From: Schizochytrium sp. TIO01
Taxonomy: Eukaryota; Protista; Bigyra: Labyrinthulomycetes
Length of the DNA stretch: 64,000 nucleotides
Direction: 5' to 3'
Assembly (NCBI GenBank): GCA_004764695.1
Contig: SMSO01000008.1
Span: 62,001-126,000 of the forward strand
Position numbers and translations under genes: made by a program. This document shows positions 16,301-57,672 of the stretch, piece by piece (the first letter of the stretch is position 1; every line of letters begins with the position of its first letter). The notes below the pieces were generated by a model. That model saw only the letters and a list, made by a program, of their open reading frames with translations. It had not been told where the DNA came from and ran no database searches.

Positions 16301-16477
16301 CTCTAATAGAGGTAGTGTGGAGGTAGTTCTATCCTGACCTTGAAGATAAACATAAACACCGGCGTGGTCTGACATATTCTGATTCGGAGACTAATGCAAA
16401 CTCAACCTGTTTTACACAGAACTTAAATGGTTAGGTTAATATTGAAGTATTGAAGTAATATACGGTTTTGCCTAAGC

Positions 16478-21426: not shown

Positions 21427-22473
21427 TTAGTATGAGAGGGAAAGCCAGATACGATCATCAGGCAATTTTAAATATTGCAATAGCCTAATAATATAATCCA
21501 GATCAGTGACGGCTGCATCCGGCTCATTGTCTTCTACTAAAGAAGGCAGTGTATGCGCAGTAAAGGCCCTGCTTGCCGTGGTCGAGTCGGGCAGGTCTGC
21601 TTCATAGACGTACTTATGCTGGTCAGTGTCGAGGTAATAGTCCTTATTAAGGATAGCTTTGGTCGTAGGGTCCGACTTGACCTGGACATAAGTCAGCGCA
21701 GGGCTGTCCTTATTCTGCGGGATGCACGAAATATTCCCCTTCTTTGGATCGTAGGTATTGAGCCACACGTAATTCGAAGTGTTGTCCACTGTGCGGTAGA
21801 CATTAATGTATGTTCGCAGCGGCACATTTGAGGGCCCATTATCCACTGTGGTGTACATGACCATTTCCTGGTAAGCTACATTACCCAGCAGCGGCTCTCT
21901 TGCGAGTTCTCCGAGCTGTGCACACCGAGAAACCGCAACGGCGTTGCGAAAGCCTGTGAAGAGGCAAGTACTGCCTCGCTGGCTGTGCCTCTTGAAGTTA
22001 ATGCTCCTTCGGCGACTGCGAATGCGTACCTTGCCATTGGCCACGGGAGGAATTCCACCAATGAATCGCCAATCTACGCATGTTCGAAAACCTCCAGGTA
22101 GTTCTCCACGCCGAATGATCGTCTCAGGCCTCCAGGCAGCAGCATCCTGGTTGAAAGCGGCCAGCGTGAGTAAGTCCTTGCCGTCTGTAAGCGGGTAGTG
22201 GTAGTGTGTTCCATGCAAGTTGAGATTGTCCCAGTTCAACTGCGCCTTCGCTGCTTCCGGTCTACGATCAGGGGAGTAGCCCAGGCGATACTTTATAGCA
22301 TTACTGGTAGCCTTAGGGTCTGAAGGAATGGTAAAGTAGCCCGTGGTGGCGGAACAGAACATGGGCATGCTCCAGGTGCCATTAATAAGCGATTTCTCGC
22401 CGCCTAGGACATGTTTTACTTTGCTAAGTCGGTCCACTGCATTCTTCAGCGTTGTCGCAGTATCACACGTCAT
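21427..22473 (-). pseudogene. Probably truncated paralog of the N-terminal domain of 22798..26337
   Basis: Shares CxTTGYF, KYRLGYxPDRR, WRPETIxRRGELPGG, CVDWRFIGGIPP, REPLLGNxAYQ, RTYINVYRT. Similarity stops at ~21505, and the last ~25 codons lie in AT-rich DNA. Confidence 0.75.
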
Positions 22474-22797
22474 CTTGCCGTGTGCTTTTTTGTACTTGTT
22501 TTTGTTGGTTTATTACTATTCTTTTCTTATTCTTTCTCACACCAGAGATAAAAAAGATAGTTTACGAAGGAGATTTCGTTTTTTGCACCTTTACAGTTTT
22601 GTATATTTTTGTTTGTCTTTGTTTTTGTTTTTACAATTCTACCTTTCACCCCTTTTCTTATAAAGGGTTCGTTCTTATCTATGGATGGTATATTATTTTA
22701 TTTTGCAAGTGTAAGTTTTCTTCTTTTTGTTTTACTTTGTTTTGATTGTTTTGAAATCGCTAGTCTAAACCCCAACCCTCCCAAAAAACAGCAAAAA

Positions 22798-25700
22798 CTA
22801 ATGAACTCCTGTGTACTGCTTTGCAGCTGCGTCAGCCACAACGTGAACATCGCCAAGGATCAAGGTAGTGGATAGTGCAATGCCGATGATTCCCAGGCAA
22901 CCAATGAGGGTACCAATAAGGATGCGAGCAAGCAAGAGGTGGCGCGGATCTTGGAGCTTCTTGGGAACCACCTTGATAAGCACCACAATAAGAGGCACGA
23001 CAAGGAAGATCGTCACAATGAGAGGAACGAAGCTAAGTGCATTCAATCTCTCTGTATAGCTGCGGTTATCAGTTCCGCTATCATCAATTGAGGTCGAGGT
23101 GTCTCCCGTTTCAGGGATGGATGCAGTCGGCGTGGTGAAGTCCGTGCGCACTAGAACCTCCAGATCGTCGTTGTCTGTAGGGTAATACTCAGGGCAAACA
23201 TCAAGCAGAGCACAGAGCCCCGACTCATCGAGCTGCGCAAAGTTACAGAGGGTGTTCTCCAGGCAAGCATTTGCGCAGGCCTGCATTGTTTTCGCTCCTG
23301 AAACCACAGCGATGCTGTTTGTGTAACCCCTGTTCTCACAGAAGTGGCCAATGACTGCATTGAAACCTTTATAATCGCTTGCAGAAACGTTAGGCGCCGC
23401 GCCACGAGGAACGGGGCGCACGGTAATGAGATCGCAGGGCCCGCGCTGCGTCGGAGAGTAGGTCCCTGTGCAAACGCGGCACTCTTCTGTCTGTGCATTC
23501 CACGTTGCGTGCGAGCAATCGCCTGTGCACTTCTTCGCGCAATTGATAAGACTGTTTTGCTTGCTTGTAGTACCTCCCGAGGTGCACCCTGGCCCATTGA
23601 CGAGTCTGTAGCCAGAAGGAACCTTGATAAGGTTGCTGAAATCATTGATTCCCTTCATGGCTTTGGTCATGCAGACATCCTGGTAGTCCCCGTAGTACTT
23701 CTCGATGAGCTGCATGCTCGTAGACTGGGTTGCAATGGTGCTCTTACGTTGCAGCAAGGTGCTACCTGTATCGTCATTCTCTATATCGCAACTTGCATAG
23801 AAGTAGCCCTCAGTATCCTTGATATTCACGAAGTTGCACTCACCCGTGCACTTGCTCACTGCATCCACTTGATTGGTGACGGCCTCTTTCTTCAGAAGCT
23901 TGCCTGAGGCAGACCCACAGGTAGTATAACTGTAACTCACAAAGTCTGCTTCAGGATCTGCATTTGTTCTGGTCAAGGCGCGCGCGGCTGTATAGTTCGG
24001 CAGTAGTGGGGGCACCACAGAGGAGTCAATCGGATCACAAGGAGACCCCGCATTGCAGTGCTGGTCCTTTCCATTGCCTACGAATCCCGCTGTTTTACCT
24101 GAAGGATCGTAGTCCACCGTCTCAATGAGCCTATACTTGCTAGCACCACGCACTTCGTTTGTGTCTCCCATGAATTCGCCGCCATCTCGGGTAGCGTGAT
24201 CACCTGGAAGCTGGCAAGTACCATCATAAAAGTACTTTACTGCCATTCCACCGCCTCCCTTGCCGGTCTTGATGTTGTGATTCCAGCCCCCGAAGTCTCT
24301 TTCGAAGTTGTGCAGGCCGTGCCAGGCATGCAGCCACGGGATGCGGTACAGGAAGAAGCCTCTGTAAGTGTCTCCCGTTTGAAAGTGGCTGTTAGCAAGC
24401 ATAAAGAAGGACTGGTCTGGTGCTGTGGGGTGAAACATGTACCCCACAAGTGCGGGAGTGTGCTCAGAGGTGTAACCTGTGGCGTAGCTCTCCGCAAAGA
24501 CCGCTTTATGGAAGTCCTGCAGTACGTTACGCACAGCTAGGTCAGTTTTGCTTCCCGAACCGTCCATCAGGTACTCTGGGTAAAGGATTTTATTGGCCTC
24601 GTCTGCTTGAATGCCCAGCGTTTCCGCCATGGCTTCCCACAGCGAGGAAGATCCTCCAATCAGCTTGCTTCGCTTGATCATCATGGGACCTAAATTGTCC
24701 AGCATCAGCATGACAAACAGCATTGGGCTTGCGTAAGCCAGATCTCCCAAGGTGAAAACTGGCTGGTTGTGGTCCAGGTACATCCAGAACTGGTTCTGGC
24801 CCACAGTGCGGTCGATCACATCCACTCCAATAGCGTCAATGTTCATCGAGACTCCATTAAAGAAAGGTCTGTTCTTGGAAATGATCTTGCTGCCGAAGTA
24901 AGACTGCAATTCAGACAGTTTGTTCGTTTCGAAACTCGCTTGAAAGGGAAACCAGCTCTCTCCGTCGAAGCATTTCAGGTAGAGCAATGGGACACTCGTA
25001 TCCGTTCCGCAAAGGGTCTCGTCCTGCAGTTTGTAGCCGAGGATTTTCGCGTAGTCTGCATTGCCAGAGTCACGGAAACAAGATTCACCTCCGCAAATCA
25101 CCGTCTGTGAAGGTGCATTCTTGGTGGGAATGTACCTAGAGTCTACGTAAGGTTTCAAGTAAGGATCCACTTCGTACTCGCTGATGTAATAAGCAAGTGC
25201 AATGCCCCACTTGTTATTAGGTTCGCTCCAGTCAGGTGTAGTAGTAGTACTAGTCGTGGTCGAAGTAGAAGCGCTGCGGCCTACCTGCGTTTCTACGCCT
25301 GTTTTCAGTGAGAAGGCTCTTCCCGCAAGCGTGGACTTCATGAGCGGGTAGTCCCGATCGTCCATAAGCGCTGAGTCTTCGCTCGTGTAAGCAGACTCAT
25401 CAATGGCCGGCTCTAAGTCTGAAATCAGTGTGGGCCTTACATGAGCCACAAAGGCGCGATTCACCGAAGAAGAATCTGGTGCGTCCGATTGATAAACGTA
25501 GTTATGATCATCACTGGATAAAGCGTAGTCCTTATTCAAAACCTCTTTGGTTGTAGGGTCCGTCTTGACCTCGTAGAAGCTAACATTCGCCGTCTTGTTC
25601 TGTTTCACCGCCTGGCAAGTCTTAGTCTTTACATAATTGACGGTCCAAATGTAGTTGTCTCGATTATCCAGCGTGCGGTAGACATTGATGTAAGTTCGCG

Positions 25701-26337
25701 TTGGCACGCCTTTGATTGCATTCTTGAAATGCTGGTACATCACGGGTGCCTGATAAGCAATATTACCTAGCAAAGGTTCGCGAGAGAGCTCTCCGAGCTC
25801 TGCGCAGCGTGCAAGCGAGATAGAATTGCGCTCTCCCGTATACTCGCAGGTGCTTCCACACTGCGTGGCTGGTTTGTAATTGGTGAAGCGGCGTCTAGAC
25901 CGAATCAGCACCCTTCCATTGGCGCAAGGTGGAATTCCTCCAATGAATCTCCAGTCCACGCACTCTCTCATTCCTCCAGGCAGCTCGCCGCGCCGCAGAA
26001 TTGTCTCGGGTCTCCATGCTTCTATATCTTGTTTAAAGGCGGCCTGGGACAGAAGGTCTCGCATTTCGCCGAATGGAAAATGCAAATCAGGGTGATTGAA
26101 ATTGAGCCGCGTCCAATCCAGTTGGTTCGCAGAATTATCCTTGCGGCGATCCGGGGCGTAGCCTAATCGGTACTTCAGGATATCTGCAGTTCCTTTAAAA
26201 TAACCCGTGGTGGTGGCGCAGTACATCTTGAAGCCATACTTGCCTATAAGCATGTCTGCCAGAACATTATCTAGCGTCCAGTGCTGGGTCTTTTTCATGG
26301 CTGCGAGAGCATCTGCGATGCTCTTATCATCACACAT
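22798..26337 (-). CDS. Large Cys-rich membrane-anchored protein with PAN/apple-like repeats (putative virion surface or adhesion protein)
   Basis: 1179 aa. Three C-terminal Cys modules (CTGECNFV, CAKKCTGDCSHATW, CANACLENTLCNFA...C) fit PAN/apple spacing, followed by two hydrophobic helices. Confidence 0.75.
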   Translation of the reverse strand: MCDDKSIADALAAMKKTQHWTLDNVLADMLIGKYGFKMYCATTTGYFKGTADILKYRLGYAPDRRKDNSANQLDWTRLNFNHPDLHFPFGEMRDLLSQAAFKQDIEAWRPETILRRGELPGGMRECVDWRFIGGIPPCANGRVLIRSRRRFTNYKPATQCGSTCEYTGERNSISLARCAELGELSREPLLGNIAYQAPVMYQHFKNAIKGVPTRTYINVYRTLDNRDNYIWTVNYVKTKTCQAVKQNKTANVSFYEVKTDPTTKEVLNKDYALSSDDHNYVYQSDAPDSSSVNRAFVAHVRPTLISDLEPAIDESAYTSEDSALMDDRDYPLMKSTLAGRAFSLKTGVETQVGRSASTSTTTSTTTTPDWSEPNNKWGIALAYYISEYEVDPYLKPYVDSRYIPTKNAPSQTVICGGESCFRDSGNADYAKILGYKLQDETLCGTDTSVPLLYLKCFDGESWFPFQASFETNKLSELQSYFGSKIISKNRPFFNGVSMNIDAIGVDVIDRTVGQNQFWMYLDHNQPVFTLGDLAYASPMLFVMLMLDNLGPMMIKRSKLIGGSSSLWEAMAETLGIQADEANKILYPEYLMDGSGSKTDLAVRNVLQDFHKAVFAESYATGYTSEHTPALVGYMFHPTAPDQSFFMLANSHFQTGDTYRGFFLYRIPWLHAWHGLHNFERDFGGWNHNIKTGKGGGGMAVKYFYDGTCQLPGDHATRDGGEFMGDTNEVRGASKYRLIETVDYDPSGKTAGFVGNGKDQHCNAGSPCDPIDSSVVPPLLPNYTAARALTRTNADPEADFVSYSYTTCGSASGKLLKKEAVTNQVDAVSKCTGECNFVNIKDTEGYFYASCDIENDDTGSTLLQRKSTIATQSTSMQLIEKYYGDYQDVCMTKAMKGINDFSNLIKVPSGYRLVNGPGCTSGGTTSKQNSLINCAKKCTGDCSHATWNAQTEECRVCTGTYSPTQRGPCDLITVRPVPRGAAPNVSASDYKGFNAVIGHFCENRGYTNSIAVVSGAKTMQACANACLENTLCNFAQLDESGLCALLDVCPEYYPTDNDDLEVLVRTDFTTPTASIPETGDTSTSIDDSGTDNRSYTERLNALSFVPLIVTIFLVVPLIVVLIKVVPKKLQDPRHLLLARILIGTLIGCLGIIGIALSTTLILGDVHVVADAAAKQYTGVH

Positions 26338-27385: not shown

Positions 27386-28441
27386 ATGGCTGTAGGCGAA
27401 GGCTTCTTCGTAAGCGGATTCATATTTTTGGTCGCTGGAATTTCCTTATGCGGGGCTAGTGCCTCTGCAGGTTTCACAAAAACTGTCATTAATACTGCGG
27501 GAAGCAATGGTAGTTCCACTGCGACGACTGTAGCAGCAACACAGTCGGGCGGAAGTGATACGAATACTACTGTAACTTCGAGCGGCACCAATAGCACAGT
27601 CTCTGCAACGGCAACAGCAACAGCAACAGCAACGGCAACAGCAAGCTCCTCTGCTCCGAGCACCGCTGCTCCTACCGCAGCTGCTTCGCCTGATTGTGTT
27701 GCACAGTCAAGCTCAGTTTCCATTTGTACAACTGCATGGTATCGATTGATTGACAAGACTTACTACGATAATGGTAAGACTAACTACTATCTCGGTACCG
27801 ACTCCCTCCTTAATAACAATTATTATCCCGTGGGAACATTTCCTGCTGACCCTGATAATCCTCGAGATGATATGCAATGGAGCTTCAAGAAAAACTCATT
27901 GAATAGCACCAACATCTTTACAATTATGAACAAAGCCAATGCAGCGATGATATATGTAACGGAAGCCTACGAATCTGTAGAAGCGATGACCACTGCATCA
28001 ACTCCCATCGAGCTCAAACTGGTGAAAGCTGGACCAGGAAACGGCAGTTCAATCATAGGCACGTTTGAGCTCTATAACACTAACACAAATTACCTCATTT
28101 ACCGGACCCCTGCTGCCAACGATGGTCTAGTTTCGTGCTACAACGGCAACACTCCCAAGTACTCATCGGTGAATTCACAGTACTACATCGAGCACATTTC
28201 AGGTCCTTCGAGAGCATCTGGTACTGGAACATCTGGAACAACGAAAGAGATCAACGCGCATGCAATCACCCTTCTCATCGTAGGTCTGCTGTTCCTGATT
28301 TCGGGTGTGAGTCTCTTTGGCGTGGGAATTAAGCACAGGCGCGCGGCGAAGCGGGAGCGCACAGGCGGGTTACTTGCCCCTCAGGAGGGGCCGGAGCAGA
28401 TCGCACAGGTGCCAACACCCGTTGGCGAGGAGGAGAATTGA
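27386..28441 (+). CDS. Double-anchored membrane protein with S/T-rich stalk and beta-rich (possibly beta-trefoil) domain; paralog of 55484..56575
   Basis: N-terminal TM, TATATAT stalk, SPDC.....S.CTTA.YRL.D.TY, YIEHISG..RA, then C-terminal TM and basic tail. Confidence 0.85.
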   Translation: MAVGEGFFVSGFIFLVAGISLCGASASAGFTKTVINTAGSNGSSTATTVAATQSGGSDTNTTVTSSGTNSTVSATATATATATATASSSAPSTAAPTAAASPDCVAQSSSVSICTTAWYRLIDKTYYDNGKTNYYLGTDSLLNNNYYPVGTFPADPDNPRDDMQWSFKKNSLNSTNIFTIMNKANAAMIYVTEAYESVEAMTTASTPIELKLVKAGPGNGSSIIGTFELYNTNTNYLIYRTPAANDGLVSCYNGNTPKYSSVNSQYYIEHISGPSRASGTGTSGTTKEINAHAITLLIVGLLFLISGVSLFGVGIKHRRAAKRERTGGLLAPQEGPEQIAQVPTPVGEEEN

Positions 28442-33778: not shown

Positions 33779-35119
33779 TTATCCTCTTCTGCTTCGCGCA
33801 TCTTTCCAGTGGGATTCTGTTTCGGTTGCTTTCCATTGGAGGTTCTCGTAGAACAGGTCTTGATCCTTCACAAACACGAAGGTGAAGAAATCGGTGAAAC
33901 CATCAACCCTTTTCTCGATTTTGGTACCCTCTTTCATGTAAAAGGCAACCGTTTCGCAATCAATGGGTTCAAACCCAGTGATTTTGACCCAAGTTCTCAC
34001 TCGACTTTCCCCAGTACGGTCAGTAGCAGTAACGTTCTCATTGGGACTGTAGTCGTGCGCAGGCTCGATCATGATCTGAGGAAACCTATCTTTGCCATAC
34101 CCGTACTGGTTACGTCGACCGTCGAACATGCGATGCATCGCCGCCGACAAGGCTAAGCGATTATTGTCGTCGTCCTGGACGCCCGCAGCATCCACAGCCG
34201 TCTTGTGAACTAGGTGTGCACAATCCGCCACCCCCTTTCGAAGAAAGAATGGGGCCTCAATCGACTGGAACATGGCTAAGTCCGAATCAGGTTCCACAGT
34301 GGTGTACACTGTGCTATCGCTGTCACCACAACGCGCAGAGCCTGGCTCATCATCCGAACGATAGTCCGTGTTGTAAATGTTCTGGGTATTGTCGACATAA
34401 ACGATTTCAGGGGAAGAGAGATCAATGTTGTCATTATTGTATCCGAGATTATTCGACAAGATCTCGTTGCAAAACATAGCAGCATCTCGAGAGCTAGAGA
34501 AGATAATCTCGAAGGTCAAGTCCATGGGTGGGTTGTCTCCTTCGTAACGAATAGCTCTTCTATGCGTTGGAACGTCCGTATCTTCGATTACCTCCGCAGA
34601 CCCAGCGTTGTTGGCTGCCGTCAAGTACACGAAGCGACGCAAGCCTTTGGCATTCTTACTATCTTTGAGGGTACCACAAACCTTGAAACGCCTGTTTTCA
34701 ATCTTTCTCGACCTTACCTCGGCCAGGACACCCCGCTGCGCCCCCCTTTCACTTACACTGCTACCTTTTTCGTAGCGCAGTGCGTCCATGTTCCGACTAA
34801 GCCTATCGCGCTCCCGTTCAAGGGAATCGTAATACGCCGTTGCCGACCCATATTTTTTCTTTAGGAAAGCACTGAGGTCGTCGAAGGAAGCCCCGTCCGT
34901 TTCTTCCAAACGCTCTATCTTGGCCTCTACGTCAGCGATACGTGCCTCGATGCTCTCGATCTTTTCTTCAAGCCGATGTACATCTTGATCCAATGCCTCT
35001 AGTTTAGCCAACTCGAGGGCTTCGTCCCCTTCCTCAACTGTTGACAATCGTTTGCGGTCATCGCCGCCCCCGCCACCGCCGCGGGTTTGGTTTCCTTTAC
35101 GACGGATGAAGGAAGCCAT
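33779..35119 (-). CDS. Crinkler-like HNH nuclease effector with coiled-coil header
   Basis: ATG at 35119 (MASFIRRKG). C-terminus FQSIE...DCAHLV...DDNNRLALSAAMHRMFDG...TFVFVKD...F...LQWK matches recalled oomycete CRN C-terminal HNH motifs (YQRIE, ESCHLV, NNRLALSR.MH..YDG, TFVHVxD...WKH). Confidence 0.8.
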   Translation of the reverse strand: MASFIRRKGNQTRGGGGGGDDRKRLSTVEEGDEALELAKLEALDQDVHRLEEKIESIEARIADVEAKIERLEETDGASFDDLSAFLKKKYGSATAYYDSLERERDRLSRNMDALRYEKGSSVSERGAQRGVLAEVRSRKIENRRFKVCGTLKDSKNAKGLRRFVYLTAANNAGSAEVIEDTDVPTHRRAIRYEGDNPPMDLTFEIIFSSSRDAAMFCNEILSNNLGYNNDNIDLSSPEIVYVDNTQNIYNTDYRSDDEPGSARCGDSDSTVYTTVEPDSDLAMFQSIEAPFFLRKGVADCAHLVHKTAVDAAGVQDDDNNRLALSAAMHRMFDGRRNQYGYGKDRFPQIMIEPAHDYSPNENVTATDRTGESRVRTWVKITGFEPIDCETVAFYMKEGTKIEKRVDGFTDFFTFVFVKDQDLFYENLQWKATETESHWKDARSRRG

Positions 35120-35453
35120 TTTCTTTCGCTCGGATGGACTGTTGCTCTGCTGCACCTGCTGCACTTGCTTCAAGTCACGCCGGCCTGGTGATACGGAACT
35201 GCCTGAGTCGGGTGCACGGCAGCGGTTCTACATTCATTAGGTTAGATTAGGTGAAGGGTAGAGCTTAGGTAAAACAGACTAAATTTTTAAACTGAGTGCA
35301 GCCCTGGCGTAGAAATAGCGGCGGCACAAGACGCACGGTACTGCACAGGGGCACAGCTGGTTCTGCCCGCCCGGTCCCTCGCCCTTGCATCCGCCCGTCG
35401 GTTGTCTCTCCATCTCTGTGTTACGAAGAGAAGAGAGGAAAAGAGAGGGGAAG

Positions 35454-38475: not shown

Positions 38476-40539
38476 TTGTCTGCGCCCCTTCACGCGAAAG
38501 GGAAGTCCAACGGAAATCGAGGTGTTAGAAACCCGGGAGGCGGAGACGGAATGGCGAGCAACCGACTTAGCACGAACAGTCGCTCATCGCAGCGAACTGA
38601 CAACGCGGGGGACAGTGGTGCGCGTTTCGATATTGTCCGCTTTGAGAGACGTCTAGAGGTGCAACAGGCTAGACTTCAAGAACTCGGAAAAGAATTGAAA
38701 GAGCTGGAAGACACTGGCGAGATTCCTGATGACGTTCTTCTGATCATTGAGGATGTTGTTCAAGAACAAATGGAGTTCGAGGACGCAATAAAAGAGGTGG
38801 CAATTTATGATTTAAAGGGTCGTTTGAAACGTAACGCTTTAAGAGCTCTGCGCATAGCATCTGATATGAAGGAAGCCCGAGTTAAAATCGAGAAAACCGA
38901 GGGAAAGATTGAGGAATTTGAGTCTGGAGGCGGTGAAGAAGGAGACAGCAATTGGCACTTCTCCGGATCAGTTTGGGAAGCCCTTAAGTTCGCTTTACCT
39001 ATAGTCCCTCAGCATGTTTTGCCAACTGTATCGAGCACCGCCGTTATTAGCGACAACTACATTTTTGCCCCTGCAAGCGTCATCAAAGTTGACATCGGAA
39101 GATTCATGAAGCACTGTATCGATGAAGGATTTGTGAGCAAGCTTCAGGAAGAAGCAACGAGTCTAAATGTTGATAGTCTACTCTGTCATTCAATGCAGTC
39201 TCTTTTCCTTAGGTCCGAGAGTTCCATTGGGCTTTGTTTTTCACAAGTTTTCCAAGCAGTCACCAGTGTTTTGCCCGTCGAAGAAGGAGAAGAAGGAACT
39301 GGAAGTGTCCAGCTCGGCTATACGTCGGACTACCCGGTAAAGGATGGACGCAAGGCTTTAAAGCCAGACTTTGTTGTTGGGACTATCATACAAGATCAAG
39401 CGCATCGGTTCGATGTTTCACTTGTTGGCGAGTTGAAGGGTCTTGGTTCTTCGGGCGATGAATTTTTTCACCGCTGGTGTAGTGCGGATGCAAACCATGA
39501 TCAATGCGATGGTTCCGAGAGACACCACCCTGTGTCTCCAATTAGACAGTTGTATAACTATATGGTCCAGTCCGGCAAGTTTGTTGGCGTTTACTCCAAC
39601 TATATGTTCACTGCAGCTTTCTTCCGAGATTGCGAAGGTAACCTTGCTACAACGCCGATGCTCTCAGGAAGACACTGTATGACACAATATGGACTAAGTA
39701 TACCACAGTTCCTTGCCTTAGTTACTATGATTGCTTTGAAGGGAGAAGTGCCACAATTTTTAGATGATAGAGGAAACGGCATCTTGGTGTCGTGCACAGG
39801 CTCAGAAGGTTGCACGATGGAGGGTCGTTCTGTTCCTCACACCGACCTTCCCGGGAAATGTAAATGGGATCAAGACCAGCTACAAACGCAGAATCGAGGT
39901 GGGGGAGGTGGACTTAGAGGAGGTGTAAGGCGGGCGCGGCGGAACAACCTCCTTTACAAAGAGCATGACACTCCCATCACCTGGGATGATCTCTACGAGT
40001 GCAAGCACATTTCTGACTGCTACACAGGTAGCGCAGTTGAGTGTGAGATCATGGGCGAGCGAGCAGTGGTTAAATACGACGATTTCGGCGATCACGAAGA
40101 TGCTGATTGGCGTCTCAACCAGATCGATTTTGAAGCTGAAGTCTACGCAAACCTGTCTGACTTGCAGGGGGATTGTATTCCCAAATACCTGGGCCATGGC
40201 TCCATTACTGATACTGATGGATTGCCGTATGGTTTTGCTACCTCTTATGCAGGTGAGCCACTCTCGTATGAATCTCTTGATTCTCTCACTGAAGAGTTCA
40301 AGACAAGCGTCAAGGATGCCCTAGACAAGATACACGCGCGTGGTGTTTTGCATGGCGACCTGAGACTTCCGAACATCCTGAAGTCGAAGGACGATCCTGA
40401 GAAGGCAATTTTTATCGACTTCAGTCATTCAGGGATATACGACGACCTTGATGGTCGGTTCTTTCAAGTCCGCGCAAGGCTTGAGAAGGAGAACCTCGTC
40501 AAGCTCTTGAAAGGCGAAAAAATCAAACAAGTTTTTTGA
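38476..40539 (+). CDS. Crinkler-like effector: coiled-coil header + PD-(D/E)XK (REase) domain + protein kinase
   Basis: REase motifs KPDFVV, GELK, QLYNYM, GVYSNY. Kinase motifs AVVK, EAEVY, LQGDCIP, IHARGVLHGDLRLPNIL, FIDFS. Likely start is the ATG at 38551. Confidence 0.8.
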   Translation: MSAPLHAKGKSNGNRGVRNPGGGDGMASNRLSTNSRSSQRTDNAGDSGARFDIVRFERRLEVQQARLQELGKELKELEDTGEIPDDVLLIIEDVVQEQMEFEDAIKEVAIYDLKGRLKRNALRALRIASDMKEARVKIEKTEGKIEEFESGGGEEGDSNWHFSGSVWEALKFALPIVPQHVLPTVSSTAVISDNYIFAPASVIKVDIGRFMKHCIDEGFVSKLQEEATSLNVDSLLCHSMQSLFLRSESSIGLCFSQVFQAVTSVLPVEEGEEGTGSVQLGYTSDYPVKDGRKALKPDFVVGTIIQDQAHRFDVSLVGELKGLGSSGDEFFHRWCSADANHDQCDGSERHHPVSPIRQLYNYMVQSGKFVGVYSNYMFTAAFFRDCEGNLATTPMLSGRHCMTQYGLSIPQFLALVTMIALKGEVPQFLDDRGNGILVSCTGSEGCTMEGRSVPHTDLPGKCKWDQDQLQTQNRGGGGGLRGGVRRARRNNLLYKEHDTPITWDDLYECKHISDCYTGSAVECEIMGERAVVKYDDFGDHEDADWRLNQIDFEAEVYANLSDLQGDCIPKYLGHGSITDTDGLPYGFATSYAGEPLSYESLDSLTEEFKTSVKDALDKIHARGVLHGDLRLPNILKSKDDPEKAIFIDFSHSGIYDDLDGRFFQVRARLEKENLVKLLKGEKIKQVF

Positions 40540-40789: not shown

Positions 40790-41119
40790 TGTTACTTTAG
40801 TCGCTTCGGCGTAGTCTTGGGAGGGTCCAAGCAATGGAATTGGGCCCGGGACAAAGGAGTTAAGTAGCCACGAAAAGAGCACACGAGCGGTCCTTCCATT
40901 GCCAAATGCAAAGGGTTTGAGAAACAGGAACCTTGCTGTGAATTCTGTCGCAACGTGCAAAGCATCTTGCAATGCGGCGGCTTCTACATCTTTTACATCT
41001 TGCTTTCCTGTGATCGAGAAAGGCGTGGTTTGGTATTTTATAATGAGATTCCTCAGTGCACGATCAAGAAGCCCAGGGGTTGGATGAACAAGAGGAACTC
41101 GGGCTGGATAATTTGGCAA
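40643..41119 (-). pseudogene. Fic/Doc-domain protein with altered catalytic motif and no adjacent ATG
   Basis: FLFLKPFAFGNGRTARVL versus canonical HPFx(D/E)GNGRxxR (His to Lys, acidic residue lost). The 5' end lies in a repeat whose ATG-bearing copy is at 42461. Confidence 0.7.
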
Positions 41120-41232
41120 GGTAATTATTTATTCTTTCTGTTCTTCCATAATTTCTTCTTTGTTAAGTAACCTAGCTAAGTCGCATCGCAAATGAAATGA
41201 GTGGTGAGAAGGGCCGGGAGGATCTTAGGAGA

Positions 41233-41691
41233 TCACTTAAGTGGTCTTGTTTCAATGATCACCCTTCCCTGAGAGAAAGGCGAGTTGCTGCCTGTGTACA
41301 GCATCTTGCGAATGGTCTTTTCATCGAGAAGACTCGGGTAAGCCGCAATCGTAACCTGCACATCATCGGAATATTCAATCATTTTCAGATCCCCAATGAG
41401 TTCTCGTAAAAAGCTCTCGTCATTCAGTCTTATATAGATCTTTTTGAGTTCAGGGAGTTCGTAGACCTCCCGGAAAAATTCTTTGATACCCGCATCATAC
41501 CAAAGTTCACCTGAGTAAAGGTTGTTCCTGCAGATCAGCATTTCTTTACATTCCCTCATTCTCATCACGTTCCGCTGAAAAAGTTCTTCGGGATAATCAC
41601 CGTACTTGTCGAGCTCAAACCCTTCGTCGCCAATTTGGAATGAAAAGAGTGGGAAGCCCAAGTTTCCGCCTTGAAGAACATGGTAAACCAT
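41233..41691 (-). CDS. Hypothetical protein, tandem paralog 1
   Basis: 152 aa, highly similar to 41893..42348; ATG preceded by (AAAC)n. Confidence 0.85.
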   Translation of the reverse strand: MVYHVLQGGNLGFPLFSFQIGDEGFELDKYGDYPEELFQRNVMRMRECKEMLICRNNLYSGELWYDAGIKEFFREVYELPELKKIYIRLNDESFLRELIGDLKMIEYSDDVQVTIAAYPSLLDEKTIRKMLYTGSNSPFSQGRVIIETRPLK

Positions 41692-41892
41692 CGTGTTTGT
41701 TTGTTTGTTTGTTTGTTTGTTTTCCTAGTTTTTCTACAAACTCCTTCTCCTTTTCTTCTAAGGGTAGATAATTTGGCAAGGTGATTATTCTTTCTAAAAA
41801 CTTTTTTTCTTACTTCTTTTCTTTGTTATGGAACCTAGCTAAGTTGCATTGAAATGAATGAATGAGTGACGAGGGAGATCTTAGGAGATCAC

Positions 41893-42348
41893 TTAAGCGG
41901 TCTTGTTTTCAATGATTACTCTTTCCTGGGAGAAAGGCGAGTCGTTGCCTCTATACAGCATCTTGCGAATGGTCTTTTCATCGAGAAGACCAGGGTAAGC
42001 TGCAATTGTGACCTGCAAATCATCGGAATATTCAATCATTTTCAGATCCTCAATGAGTTCTTGTACAAAACTCTCGTCATCCAGGCCTATCCAGATCTTT
42101 TTGACTCTAGGGAGTTCGTAGACCCCCTCGAAAAATTCTTTGATACCCGCATCATACGAAAGTTCACCTGAGTAAAGGTGGTTCCTACAGATCAGCATTT
42201 CTTCGCATTCCATCATCCTCCCCACGTTCTGCCGGAAAAGTCCTTCGGGGTAACCACCGTACTTGTTGAGCTTGAACCCTTCGTCACCAATTTGGAATGA
42301 AAAGATCGGATGGCTGAAGGTTCCGCCTTGAAGAACATGATAAACCAT
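41893..42348 (-). CDS. Hypothetical protein, tandem paralog 2
   Basis: 151 aa; both flanks are also duplicated. Confidence 0.85.
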   Translation of the reverse strand: MVYHVLQGGTFSHPIFSFQIGDEGFKLNKYGGYPEGLFRQNVGRMMECEEMLICRNHLYSGELSYDAGIKEFFEGVYELPRVKKIWIGLDDESFVQELIEDLKMIEYSDDLQVTIAAYPGLLDEKTIRKMLYRGNDSPFSQERVIIENKTA

Positions 42349-42652
42349 CGCGTTTGTTTGTTTGTTTGTTTGTTTGTTTGTTTGTTTGTTTGTTTGTTTT
42401 CCTTTTTTTCTGTAAACTTTCTCTTTCCTTCTCAGGGTAGATAATTTGGCGAGGTGATCATTCTTTCCGCCTTCCTTTTACCTATTCCATTTTCCCAAGG
42501 TTCTTCAATTTACCTATTGTTTCTCTTTTTATTGTTACAGAGGAGGAAGAAAAACAAATAAAAATAATATCAATTCTCCCTGGGTAAACAACGCAAAGAA
42601 AGGGGGGGGGGGCAAAAGGAATTTATAGAGAAAGAAGAAAAACCAACAAAAC

Positions 42653-49640: not shown

Positions 49641-50334
49641 CAGGAGGGGAGTTTTTTTTTCTTCTTGTTGTTTGTTTTTTTCTTCAATAAAATTTAGTCT
49701 TCCTCTTATAATGTATTACCTTGTTTGAACGACTCAAGCTTTTTTGATCATCCAACTCAATCTTGATTTTAGTCTTGCTTCTTGTTTTTTTAAATTTCGC
49801 AATGGCTTCTTGCGTGTAAATCCAAAGGCAAAATCTAACCACGAATCGACCTTTGTTGAAATATGCCTATATAGGAGGGCTCCTCTCTAACCGTCTAACC
49901 TGACGAGGTCTTCCAACAACTGGAATTATTGTACTTCCATTTGTACCAATTTTTGTAAGTTTGAAATTGCGGTTTGTTAAGGGAAATTGTAGTTTATGAT
50001 AGTTGTACCATAGTCCTAGGTAAGATTCCTTTAAATATACACCACCCCGCAAAACTTTGTACTTCCATTTGCTCCAAGGGTCTGGAGCTTTTGGTAGACC
50101 AGATCGACCAAACAGTTTGCCATAGTTTTTGCGCGGCCAGGAACAGAGCTCTTCATGAAGAGCGATTCAGAAAAACGAGAAGGAAATCGGATAACTCCAG
50201 ACTTTTTGATCTTTTGGGCTTCTCCAGATCCCAAACCAGAAATCCAGAGCTCTTTAGCATCACATTTTCCTTTCAAGATACTTTCACGAGTTCTCGCATC
50301 CAGACATAAGAAAGAAATAGTACGTATAGAAACA

Positions 50335-51270
50335 ATGAGCGGAGATAAGCAAGAAGTTCAAGACATTGAGCAAGTGCAGCAGGTTTACTCCAAGTATGGA
50401 AACCTCTCTCCTGCCATGAGGCGCCTAGTGCTCAACGATCCCATGGTGAAGAACGCTTCGCCACACCTGCTGGATATCTGGCACTACACCAATCGCTTCA
50501 TCGGAGCGGCAGGTTTCGTCTACCACGCAGCCCAAGTAGCACGCATGTGCGGACTGGCCTATACTACTAAGTTTGATCGCGCAGTATTCCGCAGTCGCTA
50601 CCTTGAAGTTTACGGTGAGAAGGAGGTAGACTGGGATTATGTCAAGAAATCGGAGATTTTTAAACCCCCCATCGGTGAAAAATCCAGACTCGGTAACTTT
50701 GAAAACTCCATAGTACTAACAGTGCCTGGGTCCACCACCGGAGAGACTGTGACAATTTCCCCGGGTACCAATTTGACCAAGTTTCCTATGCTAACCGAGA
50801 AGTTCGCTCGCCGCCTGATCCTTTCTTCAAATGGACAAATTGGGCGCCTCTATCGCGAGTTTATGATCGTCTTCTGGTCTGCCATTGCTATGATCAGAGA
50901 AGAGCCCATGACTGTAGCAAAGGTCATCCAAGATGCAGATGAAGAAATTGAGGAAATCATTCAGGATACCGTGCTCGAGCCCATTCCGGTGAACAAACAC
51001 AATGAAATTCGCGATAAAATCGCAGATAGATACAATGGAAAAATTGAAAGTGTTAACGATGCAGGCATTGTAGACGTAGAAACGAAAGACGAAGTCATCG
51101 AAGTGAAGCCCGTGGAAGATTGGTCTCATGGGATTGGGCAGGTATTTGGTTACGGAGAAGCAACAGGAAAGAGAAAGCGTTTGGTGCTTTTCGGTGAGAA
51201 AGAGCCCAATCCCATTTGTAAAAAGGTGTGCGACAAATTGGGAATCTCCCTTGAAATTCTTAAAGAGTAA
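50335..51270 (+). CDS. Putative DNA-binding N-terminal domain + C-terminal PD-(D/E)XK nuclease-like domain
   Basis: ATG 50335 aligns with the paralog start at 51472. C-terminus GIVDVETKDEVIEVK...WSHGIGQVFGY resembles the domain found behind KilA-N in giant viruses. Confidence 0.8.
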   Translation: MSGDKQEVQDIEQVQQVYSKYGNLSPAMRRLVLNDPMVKNASPHLLDIWHYTNRFIGAAGFVYHAAQVARMCGLAYTTKFDRAVFRSRYLEVYGEKEVDWDYVKKSEIFKPPIGEKSRLGNFENSIVLTVPGSTTGETVTISPGTNLTKFPMLTEKFARRLILSSNGQIGRLYREFMIVFWSAIAMIREEPMTVAKVIQDADEEIEEIIQDTVLEPIPVNKHNEIRDKIADRYNGKIESVNDAGIVDVETKDEVIEVKPVEDWSHGIGQVFGYGEATGKRKRLVLFGEKEPNPICKKVCDKLGISLEILKE

Positions 51271-51471: not shown

Positions 51472-52622
51472 ATGAGCGGAGTTCAAGACATTGAGCAAGT
51501 GCAGCAGGTGTATACAAAGTATGCAAACCTCACTGAGGCCATGCAGCGCTTAGTACTCAATGACCCCACGGTGAAGAACGCTTCGGCGCGCCTGCTGGAC
51601 ATCTGGCACTACACCAATCGCTTCATCGGAGCGACAGGCTTTGTCTACCACGCAGCCCAAGTAGCACGCATGTGCGGACTGGCATACAATGTTAATCATG
51701 ATCGCGTTCACTTCAAAGAGAGGTACCTCGAAGTTTATGGCGTGAAAGAGGTAGATTGGAAGTTTGTCAAGAAGTCGGAGGTTTTTTCGGACCCTTTCGG
51801 TGAAAACTCTAAAATGCCAATGCTGGTACTATTGAAAACTCTATAGTATTACCAGTGCCCGGGTCGACCACCGGCGAAACTGTGACAATTTCTCCGGGAG
51901 GGAATGCGGCGAAGTTCCCCATGCTTACTGAGAAGTTCGCTCGCCGCTTGATTTTGCGTTGCGGTCAGAAAGGCTTAGATAAGGACTATGCTGAGTTCCT
52001 CCTTGCCATGAATGATATTGTGGTGAAGGTTGCTACTGGTCAGTACGTGCAATCCGAAGAAGAGCAGGATCAGCAGCCTCGGGGTACCAAGCGACCTGCT
52101 ACCTGGCAGGAGGAACTGGAGTACCAGGAGCGTATGGAGGAGCTCAAATTAAAGAAAGCTCGTCGAGATGCCGAAGAAGCCCAGTTGAGGCAGATTCAGG
52201 CGGAGAATTTCTTCAAAATGATGGCTGCCTATGGAGGTGACGAGTCTGACCGCGACAAGATCCACCGCATGGATTACCAACGCAATATCGTTTTCTCCAT
52301 TGGTGATTCCTTGCTTCAGGATATCAGGGGAGGTCACTCACAAATGCAGAGTGGCCAGCCTGTGCACACCATTATGGACGCCGAGCCTGCACAAAGAGAA
52401 ATTACCATTTCCGAAGTTGCTTTGCGATTGCTGGGACGCCCTGCACGCGACAAGGAACTTCCCAAGTTTGGAATGGCTGTGAGCAAACTCTATTTTGCTA
52501 AGTACGGCACCAAGCCTCCCAAGCGCAACCAGTTCGTGGATGGTGCACCTCGCCAAGACAATTCTTATACTACTAAGGACCTTGACCTTCTTGAGCAAGG
52601 CATCCATCAGTGTATCCAATAA
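51472..52622 (+). pseudogene. Frameshifted paralog of 50335..51270 with a different, antirepressor-like C-terminal domain
   Basis: Same N-domain. Adding one base at ~51811-51814 (tctaaaatgcc) restores ENSIVLPVPGSTTGETVTISPG. C-terminus TISEV...FG..VSKLY...YG..PPK...NSYT.KD.DL. Confidence 0.8.
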
Positions 52623-52624
52623 AA

Positions 52625-52638
52625 CTCTACTAGTAGAG
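52625..52638. terminator. Perfect 14-bp palindrome just after a stop codon
   Basis: CTCTACTAGTAGAG. A 3'-end-formation role is inferred by analogy to the mimivirus hairpin rule. Confidence 0.3.
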
Positions 52639-52903
52639 AAATCGATGGAAAATTTCTAAACACTCAAATCAAACGAAAATGTAGTACCTCTAGATCTTCC
52701 TGCACACAAAATTGAATTGGAGGAGAGTGATCAGTCATCCATGCGTCATCAAAATCCTCTTTCCACCTTCGGTTTTTCGTAGGTACCCTTTTATTTAGTT
52801 CCTCATTCCTCCCAAAAGCAGACGGTCACCGCTGACTAAGAAAGCTTAAAATCTCTTTTATAGATACGAAGGTGAGAGTGTGAAAGAAGAGGAGGGAGAG
52901 AAA

Positions 52904-54337
52904 ATGGGAAAGGGCAAACGCCGCCAAAGCCGCAAACGCGGTGACGACAGTGCGACGACGAACGAGGGCGCGACGGGAGCCAAAGCGTCAGGCAGTCGCA
53001 GGGGTGTGCCGTTCCGGAGGGTCGGTATTGGGCGTTTAGATCCCGTCCCTGAGAATAACGCGATGGAGAATCAAGGCGCTTTGGACGATGCCGAGAGCAG
53101 GCGCCGCACAGCCCAACGAGTATATGATGATACGATCAATGAGCTCGAACGAATAAAGGAGAAGATCAAGCAACTCGAAGAGGCGGTCGATGAGGGCAAC
53201 GAACAGGAGCTTTTTGACCAACTGCCTGAATTTTATAAACGCCGTTTTGGAAATGTTGATGGTTACTACGACTATTTACTTGAGGAACTAGCGAATCTCA
53301 GACGTGAAAGAGAAGTTCAAGGCGAAGTATTGAAGACGGCTACTCAGGAGGTCCAAGACCTTAGGGCAGCACTCAGACTGATCACACACGGTGATAAGCG
53401 CTATTTTGAGGTCACTGGTTGGATCGACGGATCAAAGTATAGTACTGGCGTTCGTCAGAGCGTCTACTATGCCGCAGCTGATACAGGTGGAATGTACCTC
53501 ACCTCGGTCGATGAAGAGCCTCACGATGCTCATCGAAATGCTATATACTATAATGGAGAAGACCTCAATTTTCAGCTTTTCTTTTGTGACGAAAAGGCGG
53601 CCAGAGAATTTACAGTCTTGATTTCCAACGGCCGGAGTCAGCGAGTGAACACGAAGATATCTAATTCGGAAAGTATATCCAACGAAGACCTCCGTAACAT
53701 TCTTTACGACGATTATGATACTACGGATGAACCAGACTCGCCTGGCATCTCCCACGCATCTTCAATCTCTAGCAAGACTTTGGCCGACTTGTCGAGTAAC
53801 CTGGCCAAATTTCAATCCATTGAACGTTCTGATTTAGTGGCGCGTGGTAAAGCACAAATCTGTCACCTTGTGGATAAGAGTCACGTTGGAAGCATCGAAG
53901 GTTTCTCTGATGATGACAACAATAAGCTATGCTTAACCCCGACTCTTCACGCGAAGTTCGATGGGAATCGGAACAGGCACGGGTATTCATCCCCCCCTGA
54001 CATACTGATCGAGCACGTTGTTGCGCCGCGAGAGGGCCTCATTGTTACCGCTCCGGGGTTAATTGAAAACCCTGGATTCACCGATGACCAACTACAGGAA
54101 CGCGCTTTGGTCTGGCTCAAAGTGAACTTTCCTTACAAAGAAGACTTCATTCTTTTTGGGAATCTACTCAAATTTGGTAGCATCGTTGATCCTGAGGAGG
54201 ACCTAGAGTTGCGGTGTTGGGTTGTCTATACTTTTGTCCACGTTCTTGATAAAGATCAGTTTATAAAGAATATTGATTGGAAAGCAGAACGCACGAAGCA
54301 AGTATGGGAGGAACTGAGTTTTAATCAAAGCAATTAA
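52904..54337 (+). CDS. Crinkler-like HNH nuclease effector with coiled-coil header; paralog of 33779..35119
   Basis: FQSIE...KAQICHLVDK...DDNNKLCLTPTLHAKFDG...YTFVHVLD...WKAE; header FDQLPEFYKRRFG..DGYYDYL; ATG at 52904. Confidence 0.8.
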   Translation: MGKGKRRQSRKRGDDSATTNEGATGAKASGSRRGVPFRRVGIGRLDPVPENNAMENQGALDDAESRRRTAQRVYDDTINELERIKEKIKQLEEAVDEGNEQELFDQLPEFYKRRFGNVDGYYDYLLEELANLRREREVQGEVLKTATQEVQDLRAALRLITHGDKRYFEVTGWIDGSKYSTGVRQSVYYAAADTGGMYLTSVDEEPHDAHRNAIYYNGEDLNFQLFFCDEKAAREFTVLISNGRSQRVNTKISNSESISNEDLRNILYDDYDTTDEPDSPGISHASSISSKTLADLSSNLAKFQSIERSDLVARGKAQICHLVDKSHVGSIEGFSDDDNNKLCLTPTLHAKFDGNRNRHGYSSPPDILIEHVVAPREGLIVTAPGLIENPGFTDDQLQERALVWLKVNFPYKEDFILFGNLLKFGSIVDPEEDLELRCWVVYTFVHVLDKDQFIKNIDWKAERTKQVWEELSFNQSN

Positions 54338-54749
54338 CCGTCTGAACTTAAAAAAATAAAAACAAATTACCACTAAGGCGGAATGTCTCCGGGTCGTCTA
54401 TATTCTCAGCCAGTTTTGCAGACAGTCCGCTTCGCCAAGTCAATTCTTATACTACTAAGGACCTTGACCTTCTTGAGCAAGGCATTCATCAGTGTATGTA
54501 GATAAAGAAGAAAAACAAAATCCTATTTTTCCCTTACGTTCTTTTTATGATTTATCCCTTTTCCGCTATTGAAAACACCGTACTAGGATCAATTAAGCAA
54601 AATAACTCCTCAACTACACCGTAAATTTTTTTATCGACCCAAATTTACACGTTGCTCAATTCATAGCAACTCTGTGGTGGTGTCTAGATTGTGAGTTTTG
54701 GAAGAAATACACCTTGTTTTTAGCTTGCCACCCAGCCCTATAGTTTTCC

Positions 54750-55483: not shown

Positions 55484-56575
55484 TTATTCAACAGAGGATG
55501 GTTCTTGTGAATCGATTGTTGGGTCGGCCTGGACAGCAGCAGCGATCTCGCGTGCTTTGTGTTGTTTTCGAGCTTTCCTGAGTAGAATTATTGCAGAGAT
55601 TAAGAGCAAGGGGCAGAGACAGAGGCATAGGATTGACGCTACTTTCTTTGAATTTACTGTCGGACTGCCTGCACTTGTCCCTCCGAAGTCGTAAGCCCTG
55701 AGAGACCCTGAGATATGCTCAATGTACCAAATGTTATTGGCTACTGTTGTTGTACCAATATAAAGATCGTCACTCTTTTCAGTGCTTCGGAAAATTTGCA
55801 TTCCATTGCTTTGCTGATACATACTGAAGCCGCCAAGCGTGGTGATTCCTGAAGAACTAGGCGCGCCAGGGTAATTTACACCAGAAGAATACACAAACCT
55901 AATATTTCCAGCAGATTGGGGGGAACTGAAAATGTATGCACCCGTCCTTGGCTGTTTGTAAATCGATCCGACATTGAAAGTAGCCCCGCTAACCTTATTC
56001 ACCAACATAAAGACATCCTTATTCGAACTTGTATCAGTGGTACCCTCAAAATGCCAAAGCTCCTCGTCTTTCGGTGTTGTCAGGCTCCCTGACATGGTGG
56101 TGTATTTTGATCCGTCGTAAGCAAAATACATGTTTCTCCCACTGCCTGCGTAGGTAACATCTCTCAGTCTGTAATAAGCGGTAGTGCAGAAGGAGACCGA
56201 TGTGTTTGGCTGTTGAATACAATCAGGTGAAGGCGCAGCTGTGGGCTTCGGCGTCGTCGTAGTAGTTGAAGTACTAGAAGTTACAGTGGATTGGGTGTTC
56301 CCTGATTGCGTGGTTGGCGATACGGTGTTTCCTGATTGAGTGGCCGGTGCAGTAGTAGACGAAGAAGAGTCAGAAGGCGCGGAAGAGGCGGAATCAACAG
56401 AGGATGTGGTTGCTGTTGCTGTCGCTGTCGCTGTTGCTGTTGGTGAGTCGCTCACAGTACCACCAGTACTACTACTTCCATTTGACTGCTTCAATGAGAG
56501 ACCTCCATATACACCGAAGGAAACACTGAGAATCAAACAAAGTATACCAGCGGAAGATAAAACTTTTACGCCCAT
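55484..56575 (-). CDS. Double-anchored membrane protein; paralog of 27386..28441
   Basis: Same architecture and motifs (TATATAT, PSPDC, CTTAYYRLRD.TY, WYIEHISG.LRA). Confidence 0.85.
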   Translation of the reverse strand: MGVKVLSSAGILCLILSVSFGVYGGLSLKQSNGSSSTGGTVSDSPTATATATATATTSSVDSASSAPSDSSSSTTAPATQSGNTVSPTTQSGNTQSTVTSSTSTTTTTPKPTAAPSPDCIQQPNTSVSFCTTAYYRLRDVTYAGSGRNMYFAYDGSKYTTMSGSLTTPKDEELWHFEGTTDTSSNKDVFMLVNKVSGATFNVGSIYKQPRTGAYIFSSPQSAGNIRFVYSSGVNYPGAPSSSGITTLGGFSMYQQSNGMQIFRSTEKSDDLYIGTTTVANNIWYIEHISGSLRAYDFGGTSAGSPTVNSKKVASILCLCLCPLLLISAIILLRKARKQHKAREIAAAVQADPTIDSQEPSSVE

Positions 56576-56745: not shown

Positions 56746-57672
56746 GTGATGTCTCGACTGCTCTTTGCTCGCCCTCTCTCACTGGAGTGGTTGCACAAGC
56801 AGTCTGCTCGCGAGGCGAAGGGGTACAAGCGAGAGGATGCCGAGAAACTTGCTCTTATTTACCTCTCGAAGAGTGACGACTCTGCCTTTGTGTACAGCCT
56901 TGACGAAGTTTGGAAACTTGCGGGTTACAGTAGAAAGGACATTGCTAAACGAGCTATCTTCGGTTCGAAGTTACAGAGTTGTACAGGGGAAGGGCTTAAA
57001 AGGGGCGAAGAAGTAAAAATTTTTAAATACTATCACGAGCACGAAAATAAGAAAGGAATAACAAAAACCAAAACAGAAGTAAAAAACGAAGAAACGAAGA
57101 ATGCCCCACCACCACCAAGGAAGCGCGTGCGCAGGCAGCACGGCGGTCACAATCGCGAGGATATCCGTATGACTCGCTTCGGGCTTGTGAAGTTCCTTCT
57201 CTCTGGGCGGACTCCGGCCTCCACCGCACTTGCACTCTTCTTAGTGAAACTTGGTTGTGCCCACCTTCGAGCTTTGTCTGATCCGGAGGTAGTGCTACCT
57301 AGCAGTTACTACGAGGAACATGCAGATGCCCATGCAGAATTATTGAGTGACTTAGCTACGTGTCAAGCGGCGACAGGAGCGAAGACTTTGCACGACCAGA
57401 CTGCGGATAGACTTGCGCTAGAGCATGGAGGTAGGCGCGAGGTTGTACTCTCTAGTGGCTCGCGTCCGGATGTCGTGACGGATGCTTATGTCATTGAAGT
57501 GAAGCCTTCGCGGGAGTGGATGCATGGCCTCGGACAGGCCCAGGCTTACGCAGAGGAGACTGGCTTGGAGCCTTACCTCTTCCTGATTGGCCAGCCTAGC
57601 GAGCTAGCGAAAACTGTCTGCAGATCGAAGGGCGTAAAGCTGGGATTCTGTTTGCCTTCGCGGCCTTTTTAA
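56746..57672 (+). CDS. MSV199/antirepressor-like DNA-binding domain + PD-(D/E)XK nuclease-like domain
   Basis: LDEVWKLAGYSRKDIAKR and HGGHNREDIRMT..; C-terminus RPDVVTDAYVIEVK...WMHGLGQAQAY is homologous to the C-terminus of 50335..51270. Confidence 0.8.
   Translation: MMSRLLFARPLSLEWLHKQSAREAKGYKREDAEKLALIYLSKSDDSAFVYSLDEVWKLAGYSRKDIAKRAIFGSKLQSCTGEGLKRGEEVKIFKYYHEHENKKGITKTKTEVKNEETKNAPPPPRKRVRRQHGGHNREDIRMTRFGLVKFLLSGRTPASTALALFLVKLGCAHLRALSDPEVVLPSSYYEEHADAHAELLSDLATCQAATGAKTLHDQTADRLALEHGGRREVVLSSGSRPDVVTDAYVIEVKPSREWMHGLGQAQAYAEETGLEPYLFLIGQPSELAKTVCRSKGVKLGFCLPSRPF

Follow-up and report, generated by a model that had tools for sequence, protein, structure and literature searches.

Here, we present an analysis of a 64,000-nucleotide stretch of the genome of Schizochytrium sp. 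TIO01 (contig SMSO01000008.1, positions 62,001 to 126,000, forward strand; below, the window), in which a single gene for an HNH-type nuclease lies between two near-identical 66-bp copies of the 3' end of its upstream neighbor, an accessory gene that we call gene B (Table 1). The copies and the gene that they enclose form a 1.9-kb cassette within a virus-like region. As explanation for this arrangement, we prefer an old insertion driven by the nuclease, with the cassette now inherited together with the viral element, and we give this reading about an even chance.

Table 1. Positions in the window of the cassette, its target gene, and related genes
Feature	Positions	Strand	Description
Left copy of the repeat	52550..52615	+	In frame; makes up most of the final 24 codons of gene B
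Right, orphan copy of the repeat	54432..54497	+	In-frame stop, then spacer rich in A/T; probably the native gene end, displaced
HNH gene	52904..54337	+	477 aa; coiled coil, ferredoxin-like domain, HNH-type nuclease module
Non-coding leader of the HNH gene	52623..52903	+	From sequence; bridged to left copy and open reading frame by run X15 record 11
94-nt trailer	54338..54431	+	Last ∼25 nt weakly like the sequence upstream of the left copy
Gene B, target accessory gene	51472..52622	+	Frameshifted near 51810-51825; C-terminal domain with motif GAPRQVNSYTT.DL
Gene A, tandem paralog of the N-terminal half of gene B	50155..51270	+	79% DNA identity to 51480-51952
Second HNH paralog	33779..35173	-	31% identity to the window HNH protein; control locus

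The end of gene B is present on both sides of the HNH gene

The two copies of the repeat start 1,882 bp apart and are identical at 64 of 66 positions, with mismatches at 52558/54440 and 52604/54486. In BLASTN, the repeat scores 111 bits and 20 shuffled versions of the region from 21.4 to 64 kb gave no non-self match above 41.0 bits, confirming the duplication that a first-pass annotation of this DNA had proposed. That annotation took the left copy as the end of the upstream gene and the right copy as an orphan, and the reading frames and stops are as claimed; the left copy translates as RQDNSY...HQCIQ and the right copy as RQVNSY...HQCM, each followed by a stop. In a self-BLAST of the window, these copies are the only duplication of a gene end, and it encloses the nuclease gene. 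Between them, there is one long open reading frame (ORF), that of the HNH gene, as expected for the single-gene cassette described at first pass. We also considered whether the cassette could be spliced out as a spliceosomal intron and rejected this idea; by eye, no GT/AG pair that keeps the frame lies inside the repeats.

Immediately upstream of the two copies, a further ∼25 nt are weakly similar (15 of 25 columns; p about 0.03 to 0.05), a match that 18 of 400 random segments and 10 of 400 shuffles also attained. This marginal similarity could be the trace of an older, longer duplicate. Just behind the right copy (54498-54550), different copies of the locus carry several different indels and a 44-nt replacement. 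We did not count the indels as scars of re-cutting and repair; like events occur throughout the region and are not clearly denser here.

The junctions and divergent copies of the cassette are present in independent runs

The stretch is present, in whole or in part, in 20 of the 24 public runs listed, from 11 studies, and each of the seven runs examined contains several variants that are from >99% to <90% alike. No RNA run with the stretch is recorded. Both junctions of the duplication recur in these independent runs. Specifically, contigs lead from the target into the left copy (run X6 record 26 and run X15 record 9), from the left copy through the leader into the HNH ORF (one contig, run X15 record 11), from this ORF through the trailer into the right copy (run X10 record 7), and from the end of the ORF through the entire right copy to the spacer (run X15 record 14). 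At 52558, every contig carries T, which is the base of the right copy, in 4/4 runs examined there. The mismatch at this position is therefore apparently private to the window, and the two copies are even closer in other strains, one of the two mismatches being absent in these four runs. The right copy keeps its in-frame stop in all three variants seen, i.e., C-M-stop in the window, C-I-stop in contigs that lack 4 nt at 54498 (runs X1, X3, X6, X10, X4, and X15), and C-I-stop in a loose end of run X10.

Filled copies that are 83 to 88% identical to the window (gaps counted) span the end of the HNH gene or the trailer, the right copy, and the spacer (run X3 record 19, run X15 record 14, and run X4 record 22). 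Because such divergent filled copies exist, the insertion appears to be old; the cassette would either predate the divergence of these copies or have re-entered the same site. No empty allele was found in 7 of the 20 runs that bear the stretch, in which contigs mostly cannot span the repeat. This negative is weak because the contigs that enter the repeat from the target (run X6 record 26 and run X15 record 9) stop at 52579, 30 nt into the shared core, and would not bridge an empty allele with this core. A contig of run X10 that departs at 54497 into a spacer like that of the right flank was not counted as an empty allele because it is better explained by a contig arriving from the side of the HNH gene (joint 54355 to 54457, side 41).

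The HNH protein belongs to a Crinkler-related family and has an intact nuclease motif

The HNH ORF, with a GTG at 52880, has a second ATG at 53063 (424 aa) that corresponds to the start in 4/5 transcript-derived relatives. The five transcript-derived proteins are 81 to 93% identical to the window protein, so that close copies of the HNH gene are expressed somewhere. Using a profile from three sequences, we found 285 relatives, eukaryotic and viral, at E <= 0.001. In an alignment of 104 rows (101 of 150 listed matches, the two window proteins, and P0001), the residues corresponding to H321, N340, H349, and D353, all of which are intact in the window protein, are conserved in 100, 103, 96, and 101 rows, respectively. 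The protein thus carries the HNH (His-Me finger) nuclease motif, which has a beta-beta-alpha form with a catalytic His, a structural Asn, and a metal-binding His/Asp, and cleavage activity is predicted.

The first-pass label of a Crinkler-type HNH holds at the level of the family. On its own, the window protein falls below the Pfam cut-off (PF13391, E 0.082), and no Pfam match to the Crinkler/Ubl header (PF20147) was found in its ORF, the N-terminus being modeled as long helices. Among the 104 rows, HNH_2 is matched by five and the Pfam Crinkler header is present in two; the profile recovers two proteins with this header, P0062 (E 2e-13) and P0075 (E 8e-13). "Crinkler-type HNH" is a fair family label, and the protein is not a Crinkler effector. 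It shares the HNH_2-like motif with the CR-HNH/Crinkler-type HNH proteins (His-Me finger group 38; PMC5714182 and PMC5289972); in contrast to Crinkler effectors, it has a coiled coil instead of the header, is found in a virus-like context, and comes with no evidence of secretion or effector function.

A first structural model, made from 3 sequences, was poor (pLDDT 47.5); the model from the 104-row alignment is confident (pLDDT 89.0) and has the ferredoxin-like domain. The C-terminal half of this model matches VcaM4I, a restriction endonuclease that we take to be an HNH enzyme, at a middling level (Z 7.3, rmsd 3.2, 110 aligned), and the two strong viral fold matches are to uncharacterized proteins of Feldmannia species virus (E 8e-18 and 5e-16). 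Foldseek against the PDB returned only weak ferredoxin-like matches, and sequence searches of the PDB gave nothing below E 0.1. Atlas leads, at the level of leads only, are eukaryotic HNH_2 clusters at 0.86 to 0.89. In a protein tree made by a quick method from 39 picked rows, both HNH paralogs of the window are in one weakly resolved group.

We found no relatives accompanied by their flanking DNA in viral contigs (queries HNH, repeat pattern, target, degenerate motif, helicase, P0159, and WLM), metagenomes (HNH and motif), or prokaryote genomes (HNH). The single HNH match in a viral contig (L001) is spurious, being a stretch at the start of a gene on the other strand; this gene is presumably RNase III-like.

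The repeat starts in the best-conserved motif of the target gene

Gene B shares the motif listed in Table 1 with P0006 (415 aa, full length, 39% identity to gene B), and the repeat starts in this motif, which is the best conserved between the two proteins and also occurs in the paralog ends of run X10. Atlas leads for gene B (lead level only) are unnamed bacterial clusters and, weakly, the KilAC antirepressor domain, and a search for longer homologs returned 0 of 1,277 candidates. The frameshift in gene B lies upstream of the repeat. Because of this frameshift, the gene end preserved in the window belongs to an already broken gene.

The C-terminal 86 aa of gene A are 40% identical to the ORF at 56746-57672. 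This domain is predicted to be PD-(D/E)xK/NucS-like, a label that we adopt by analogy with the ariadnavirus paper (10.64898/2026.08.29.747986). Genes A and B share the N-terminal domain, and gene A and the ORF at 56746-57672 share the C-terminal nuclease-like domain, a pattern of domain shuffling.

The cassette lies in a region resembling skiaviruses

The first 21,400 nt of the window have few genes and mostly ∼34 to 43% GC, with 47% in the initial 2 kb. Beyond 21.4 kb, long uninterrupted ORFs are dense and the GC content is 42 to 58%. In a Pfam scan of the window, we detected a Herpes_ori_bp helicase (E 6.6e-20) and a WLM protease (E 1e-7) as well as weak matches to an OTU protease (E 0.023), a kinase, and a Fic domain. 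According to the respective preprints, the Skiavirales have 17 core genes that include WLM and Herpes_ori_bp (10.64898/2026.07.28.741200), and OTU, antirepressor-like, and NucS-like paralogs are described for viruses of the skiavirus/ariadnavirus type (10.64898/2026.08.29.747986). The window has the combination of WLM and a herpes-type origin-binding primase-helicase that marks the Skiavirales/Ariadnavirales (SmDNAV-like, thraustochytrid viruses) and, likewise, the weak OTU match and antirepressor-like and nuclease paralogs. Because of this gene set (Herpes_ori_bp, WLM, OTU, antirepressor-like, and NucS-like), we infer that the window from 21.4 kb on is a skiavirus-like element in a thraustochytrid-like host. 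This identity is unproven because the window shows no capsid gene; the markers capsid (MCP), A32, and VLTF3 were not detected within the 64 kb. Scans of IMG/VR with the helicase and the WLM protein of the window found no relative. An origin from mirusviruses was set aside because the skiavirus lists fit the gene set better and because the accessible part of a paper on mirusvirus persistence (PMC12606086) has no passage on HNH.

The skiavirus/ariadnavirus-like gene set (21400-64000) directly adjoins the 21 kb of gene-poor, host-like DNA. The skiavirus preprint, in its accessible part, describes circular episomes and contains "integrat" 0 times; the region in the window is instead multi-copy and adjoins host-like DNA. 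The region 21400-64000 may thus be an undescribed multi-copy endogenous virus or a giant mobile element without capsid, the junction at ∼21.4 kb being taken from the assembly alone.

DISCUSSION

Of the four explanations that we compared, namely an old nuclease-driven insertion, a passive relic of recombination, an active element, and an assembly artefact, we prefer the first. According to this model, a free-standing HNH nuclease gene would have been inserted long ago into the last codons of the viral accessory gene B, probably at a break cut by that HNH nuclease itself. Repair would have left the gene end in two copies, with the C-terminus of gene B staying whole and the right copy representing the displaced native gene end; the ancestral gene, without the cassette, would be the empty allele. 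Recombination among the genomic copies of the viral element may then have kept both 66-bp copies alike, and the cassette now appears to be passed on together with the larger viral element instead of moving alone. An insertion made by the nuclease fits because the repeat starts in the most conserved motif of the target and because the only duplicated gene end encloses the nuclease gene.

The nearest known counterpart is the mobile endonuclease ORF (mORF) of fungal mitochondria, with its duplicated C-terminus, and not an integrase-type element. As described in two papers (PMC3630166 and PMC4019555), mORFs are inserted near the end of a gene, bring a replacement C-terminus, and leave the native end downstream. 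Examples are atp6 of Allomyces macrogynus, atp6/atp9/cox2/nad3 of Glomus sp., and atp6/cox2 of Phlebia radiata; the duplicated C-termini include a 66-bp case in cox2 (PMC4019555), and the mORF endonuclease is reported to have been shown biochemically to drive mobility (PMC3630166). The window cassette has the same layout of a gene core, an in-frame C-terminal copy with its stop, a free-standing endonuclease ORF, and a second C-terminal copy, and neither system has an intron or an integrase. Consistent with the latter and with the first-pass annotation, no Pfam family of recombinases or transposases was detected among the 30 window ORFs scanned, although such an enzyme may be encoded elsewhere than in the window. 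The two systems differ in that the mORF nucleases are LAGLIDADG or GIY-YIG enzymes encoded in mitochondrial DNA, whereas the window nuclease is a Crinkler-related HNH protein in a virus-like element with an accessory target. They also differ in that the mORF endonuclease reportedly drives mobility, whereas no empty allele of the window cassette was found in the seven runs examined and cleavage by its nuclease is predicted. Finally, the C-terminal copies in Glomus are 64 to 81% identical (PMC3630166) compared with 97 to 98% in the window; while the end carried by mORFs has diverged, which would make the site immune, the end carried here is at 64/66, with one of the mismatches absent in four runs. 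More distant parallels are free-standing homing endonucleases of phages, such as SegB (PMC13096335), and the spliceosomal homing introns of mirusviruses (PMC12768974), the targets being tRNA loci or core virion genes. As in the window, these nuclease genes of large DNA viruses are tied to a neighboring target or a local duplication; however, the window cassette shows no intron by eye, unlike the mirusvirus elements, and its nuclease family differs from those of both systems.

Several observations weigh against an insertion by the nuclease. Self-immunity is unexplained because copies that are identical at 64 to 65 of 66 positions would regenerate any short target site at one junction. The target is an apparently dispensable accessory gene, frameshifted and with several paralogs, and not an essential conserved gene. 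Flanking repeats, which the first-pass annotation expected at other HNH paralogs, are missing at the one that could be read, 33779-35173, where no match within 3.2 kb is longer than one of 20 nt at 80%. Moreover, much of the HNH family may consist of ordinary accessory nucleases because Feldmannia species virus has two matching proteins and because one member (P0034) is in the genome of a cellular eukaryote. To these points comes the lack of an empty allele in the runs examined. Lastly, the region is rich in tandem duplications and patchwork recombination.

This last point leads to the strongest competing explanation, which we regard as a serious if somewhat less probable possibility, i.e., that the cassette is a passive relic in which an ordinary viral accessory nuclease came to lie between gene B and a truncated second gene B by tandem duplication or ectopic recombination, with short-patch gene conversion keeping the 66 bp alike. 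Three other tandem duplicates within the same 43 kb are 83%, 79%, and 67% identical, and the transcript-derived HNH relatives are mosaics (P0004). In addition, a patch of 67 bp where the HNH coiled coil ends (53322-53388) also occurs in a different gene in runs X4, X6, and X15, with unrelated sequence on both sides; this patch has no second copy in the window. Given these duplicates, mosaics, and shared patch, recombination of short patches is common here, and the patch implies that such stretches arise without targeting of a gene end. The unflanked second HNH paralog and the weak similarity that extends for ∼25 nt before the start of the right copy, which would be expected of a longer block in decay, also agree with a relic. 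On the other hand, that similarity is marginal, the repeat closely coincides with the conserved C-terminal motif and reaches almost to the stop, and the mitochondrial papers tie the same layout to endonucleases (PMC3630166 and PMC4019555). Because the HNH stop is only 94 nt from the right copy, the right copy is also unlikely, at least in the simple form of this idea, to be the remnant of a third full paralog.

A stronger form of the nuclease-driven reading is that the Crinkler-type HNH protein is a site-specific selfish element, which would cut the conserved end of an antirepressor-like gene, spread the 1.9-kb cassette to further chromosomal copies of a skiavirus-like element that is endogenous, and regenerate the gene end. 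We consider this unlikely. Ongoing homing fits poorly because the near-identical copies rebuild, at one of the two junctions, any site that lies in the repeat and one flank, whereas the copies in Glomus differ by 19 to 36% (PMC3630166).

Still more doubtful is the self-mobilizing element that the first-pass annotation had in mind, which would be excised as a 1,882-bp circle by recombination between the repeats and re-enter by a single crossover or by nuclease-driven homing among the copies in the genome. The near-identical repeats would permit such a crossover, and relatives of the gene are transcribed. Run X10 provides weak hints in that two contigs join target-like upstream sequence to the repeat, at 54428, and in that contig depth, when summed, is higher near the end of the target (177) and in the right flank (151 to 177) than at the 3' end of the HNH gene (103); another contig of this run departs at 54465 into another C-terminus. 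However, contig depth is not copy number, and the ratios are inconsistent between runs, the depths at the target end, HNH gene, and right flank being 598, 538, and 311 in run X6, i.e., without an excess in the right flank, and 12, 326, and 82 in run X15. Joints that skip the cassette or close a circle were absent from 8/8 joints in one set and from the joints listed, 15 of 39, in another, and the cassette was at no other site among the loose ends listed (24 of 58 and 24 of 188). With no recombinase detected either, the proposal of self-mobilization is unsupported, and the sequence layout does not by itself establish that the cassette is mobile at present, no cassette-free version having been found. 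An assembly artefact, finally, which a multi-copy region would favor, is extremely improbable because independent contigs cover the target, leader, ORF, trailer, and spacer junctions and individual contigs span the right copy from end to end.

A review (PMC5289972) proposes a mobile-element ancestry for the nuclease domains of Crinklers. If the selfish-element reading is true, the cassette would be a working example of the role proposed for mobile elements as origin of these domains; if the relic reading is true, it would be a scar of ordinary recombination in a viral region that undergoes shuffling. The locus supplies a candidate for the enzyme and one, of 66 bp, for its target, and the protist can probably be cultured, which makes the idea of a mobile-element origin directly testable. 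Mitochondria are already known to have this architecture; the window differs in its nuclease family, in its accessory target, and in a multi-copy setting that appears to be endogenous. We found no paper on a Crinkler-type HNH protein with a defined target site or duplicated gene end in a literature covered without Zhang et al. 2016 and the supplementary tables of the virus preprints, which may list this HNH family. The apparently integrated, multi-copy skiavirus-like setting may matter more than the cassette.

Other features of the window

Among the tandem duplicates, the 83% tandem pair and the 67% pair are further duplicated genes (41107-42467; 21427-26337). By eye, 27386-28441 and 55484-56575 encode two similar Ser/Thr-rich membrane proteins. 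The gene at 38476-40539 has a coiled coil, a part predicted by eye to be restriction-endonuclease-like, and a kinase-like domain (weak matches), a layout that resembles the C-termini of REase-kinase Crinklers; it has no long flanking repeat. In the host-like part, decayed non-coding repeats that are ∼730 to 810 bp apart and 73 to 84% identical lie at 15887-17385.

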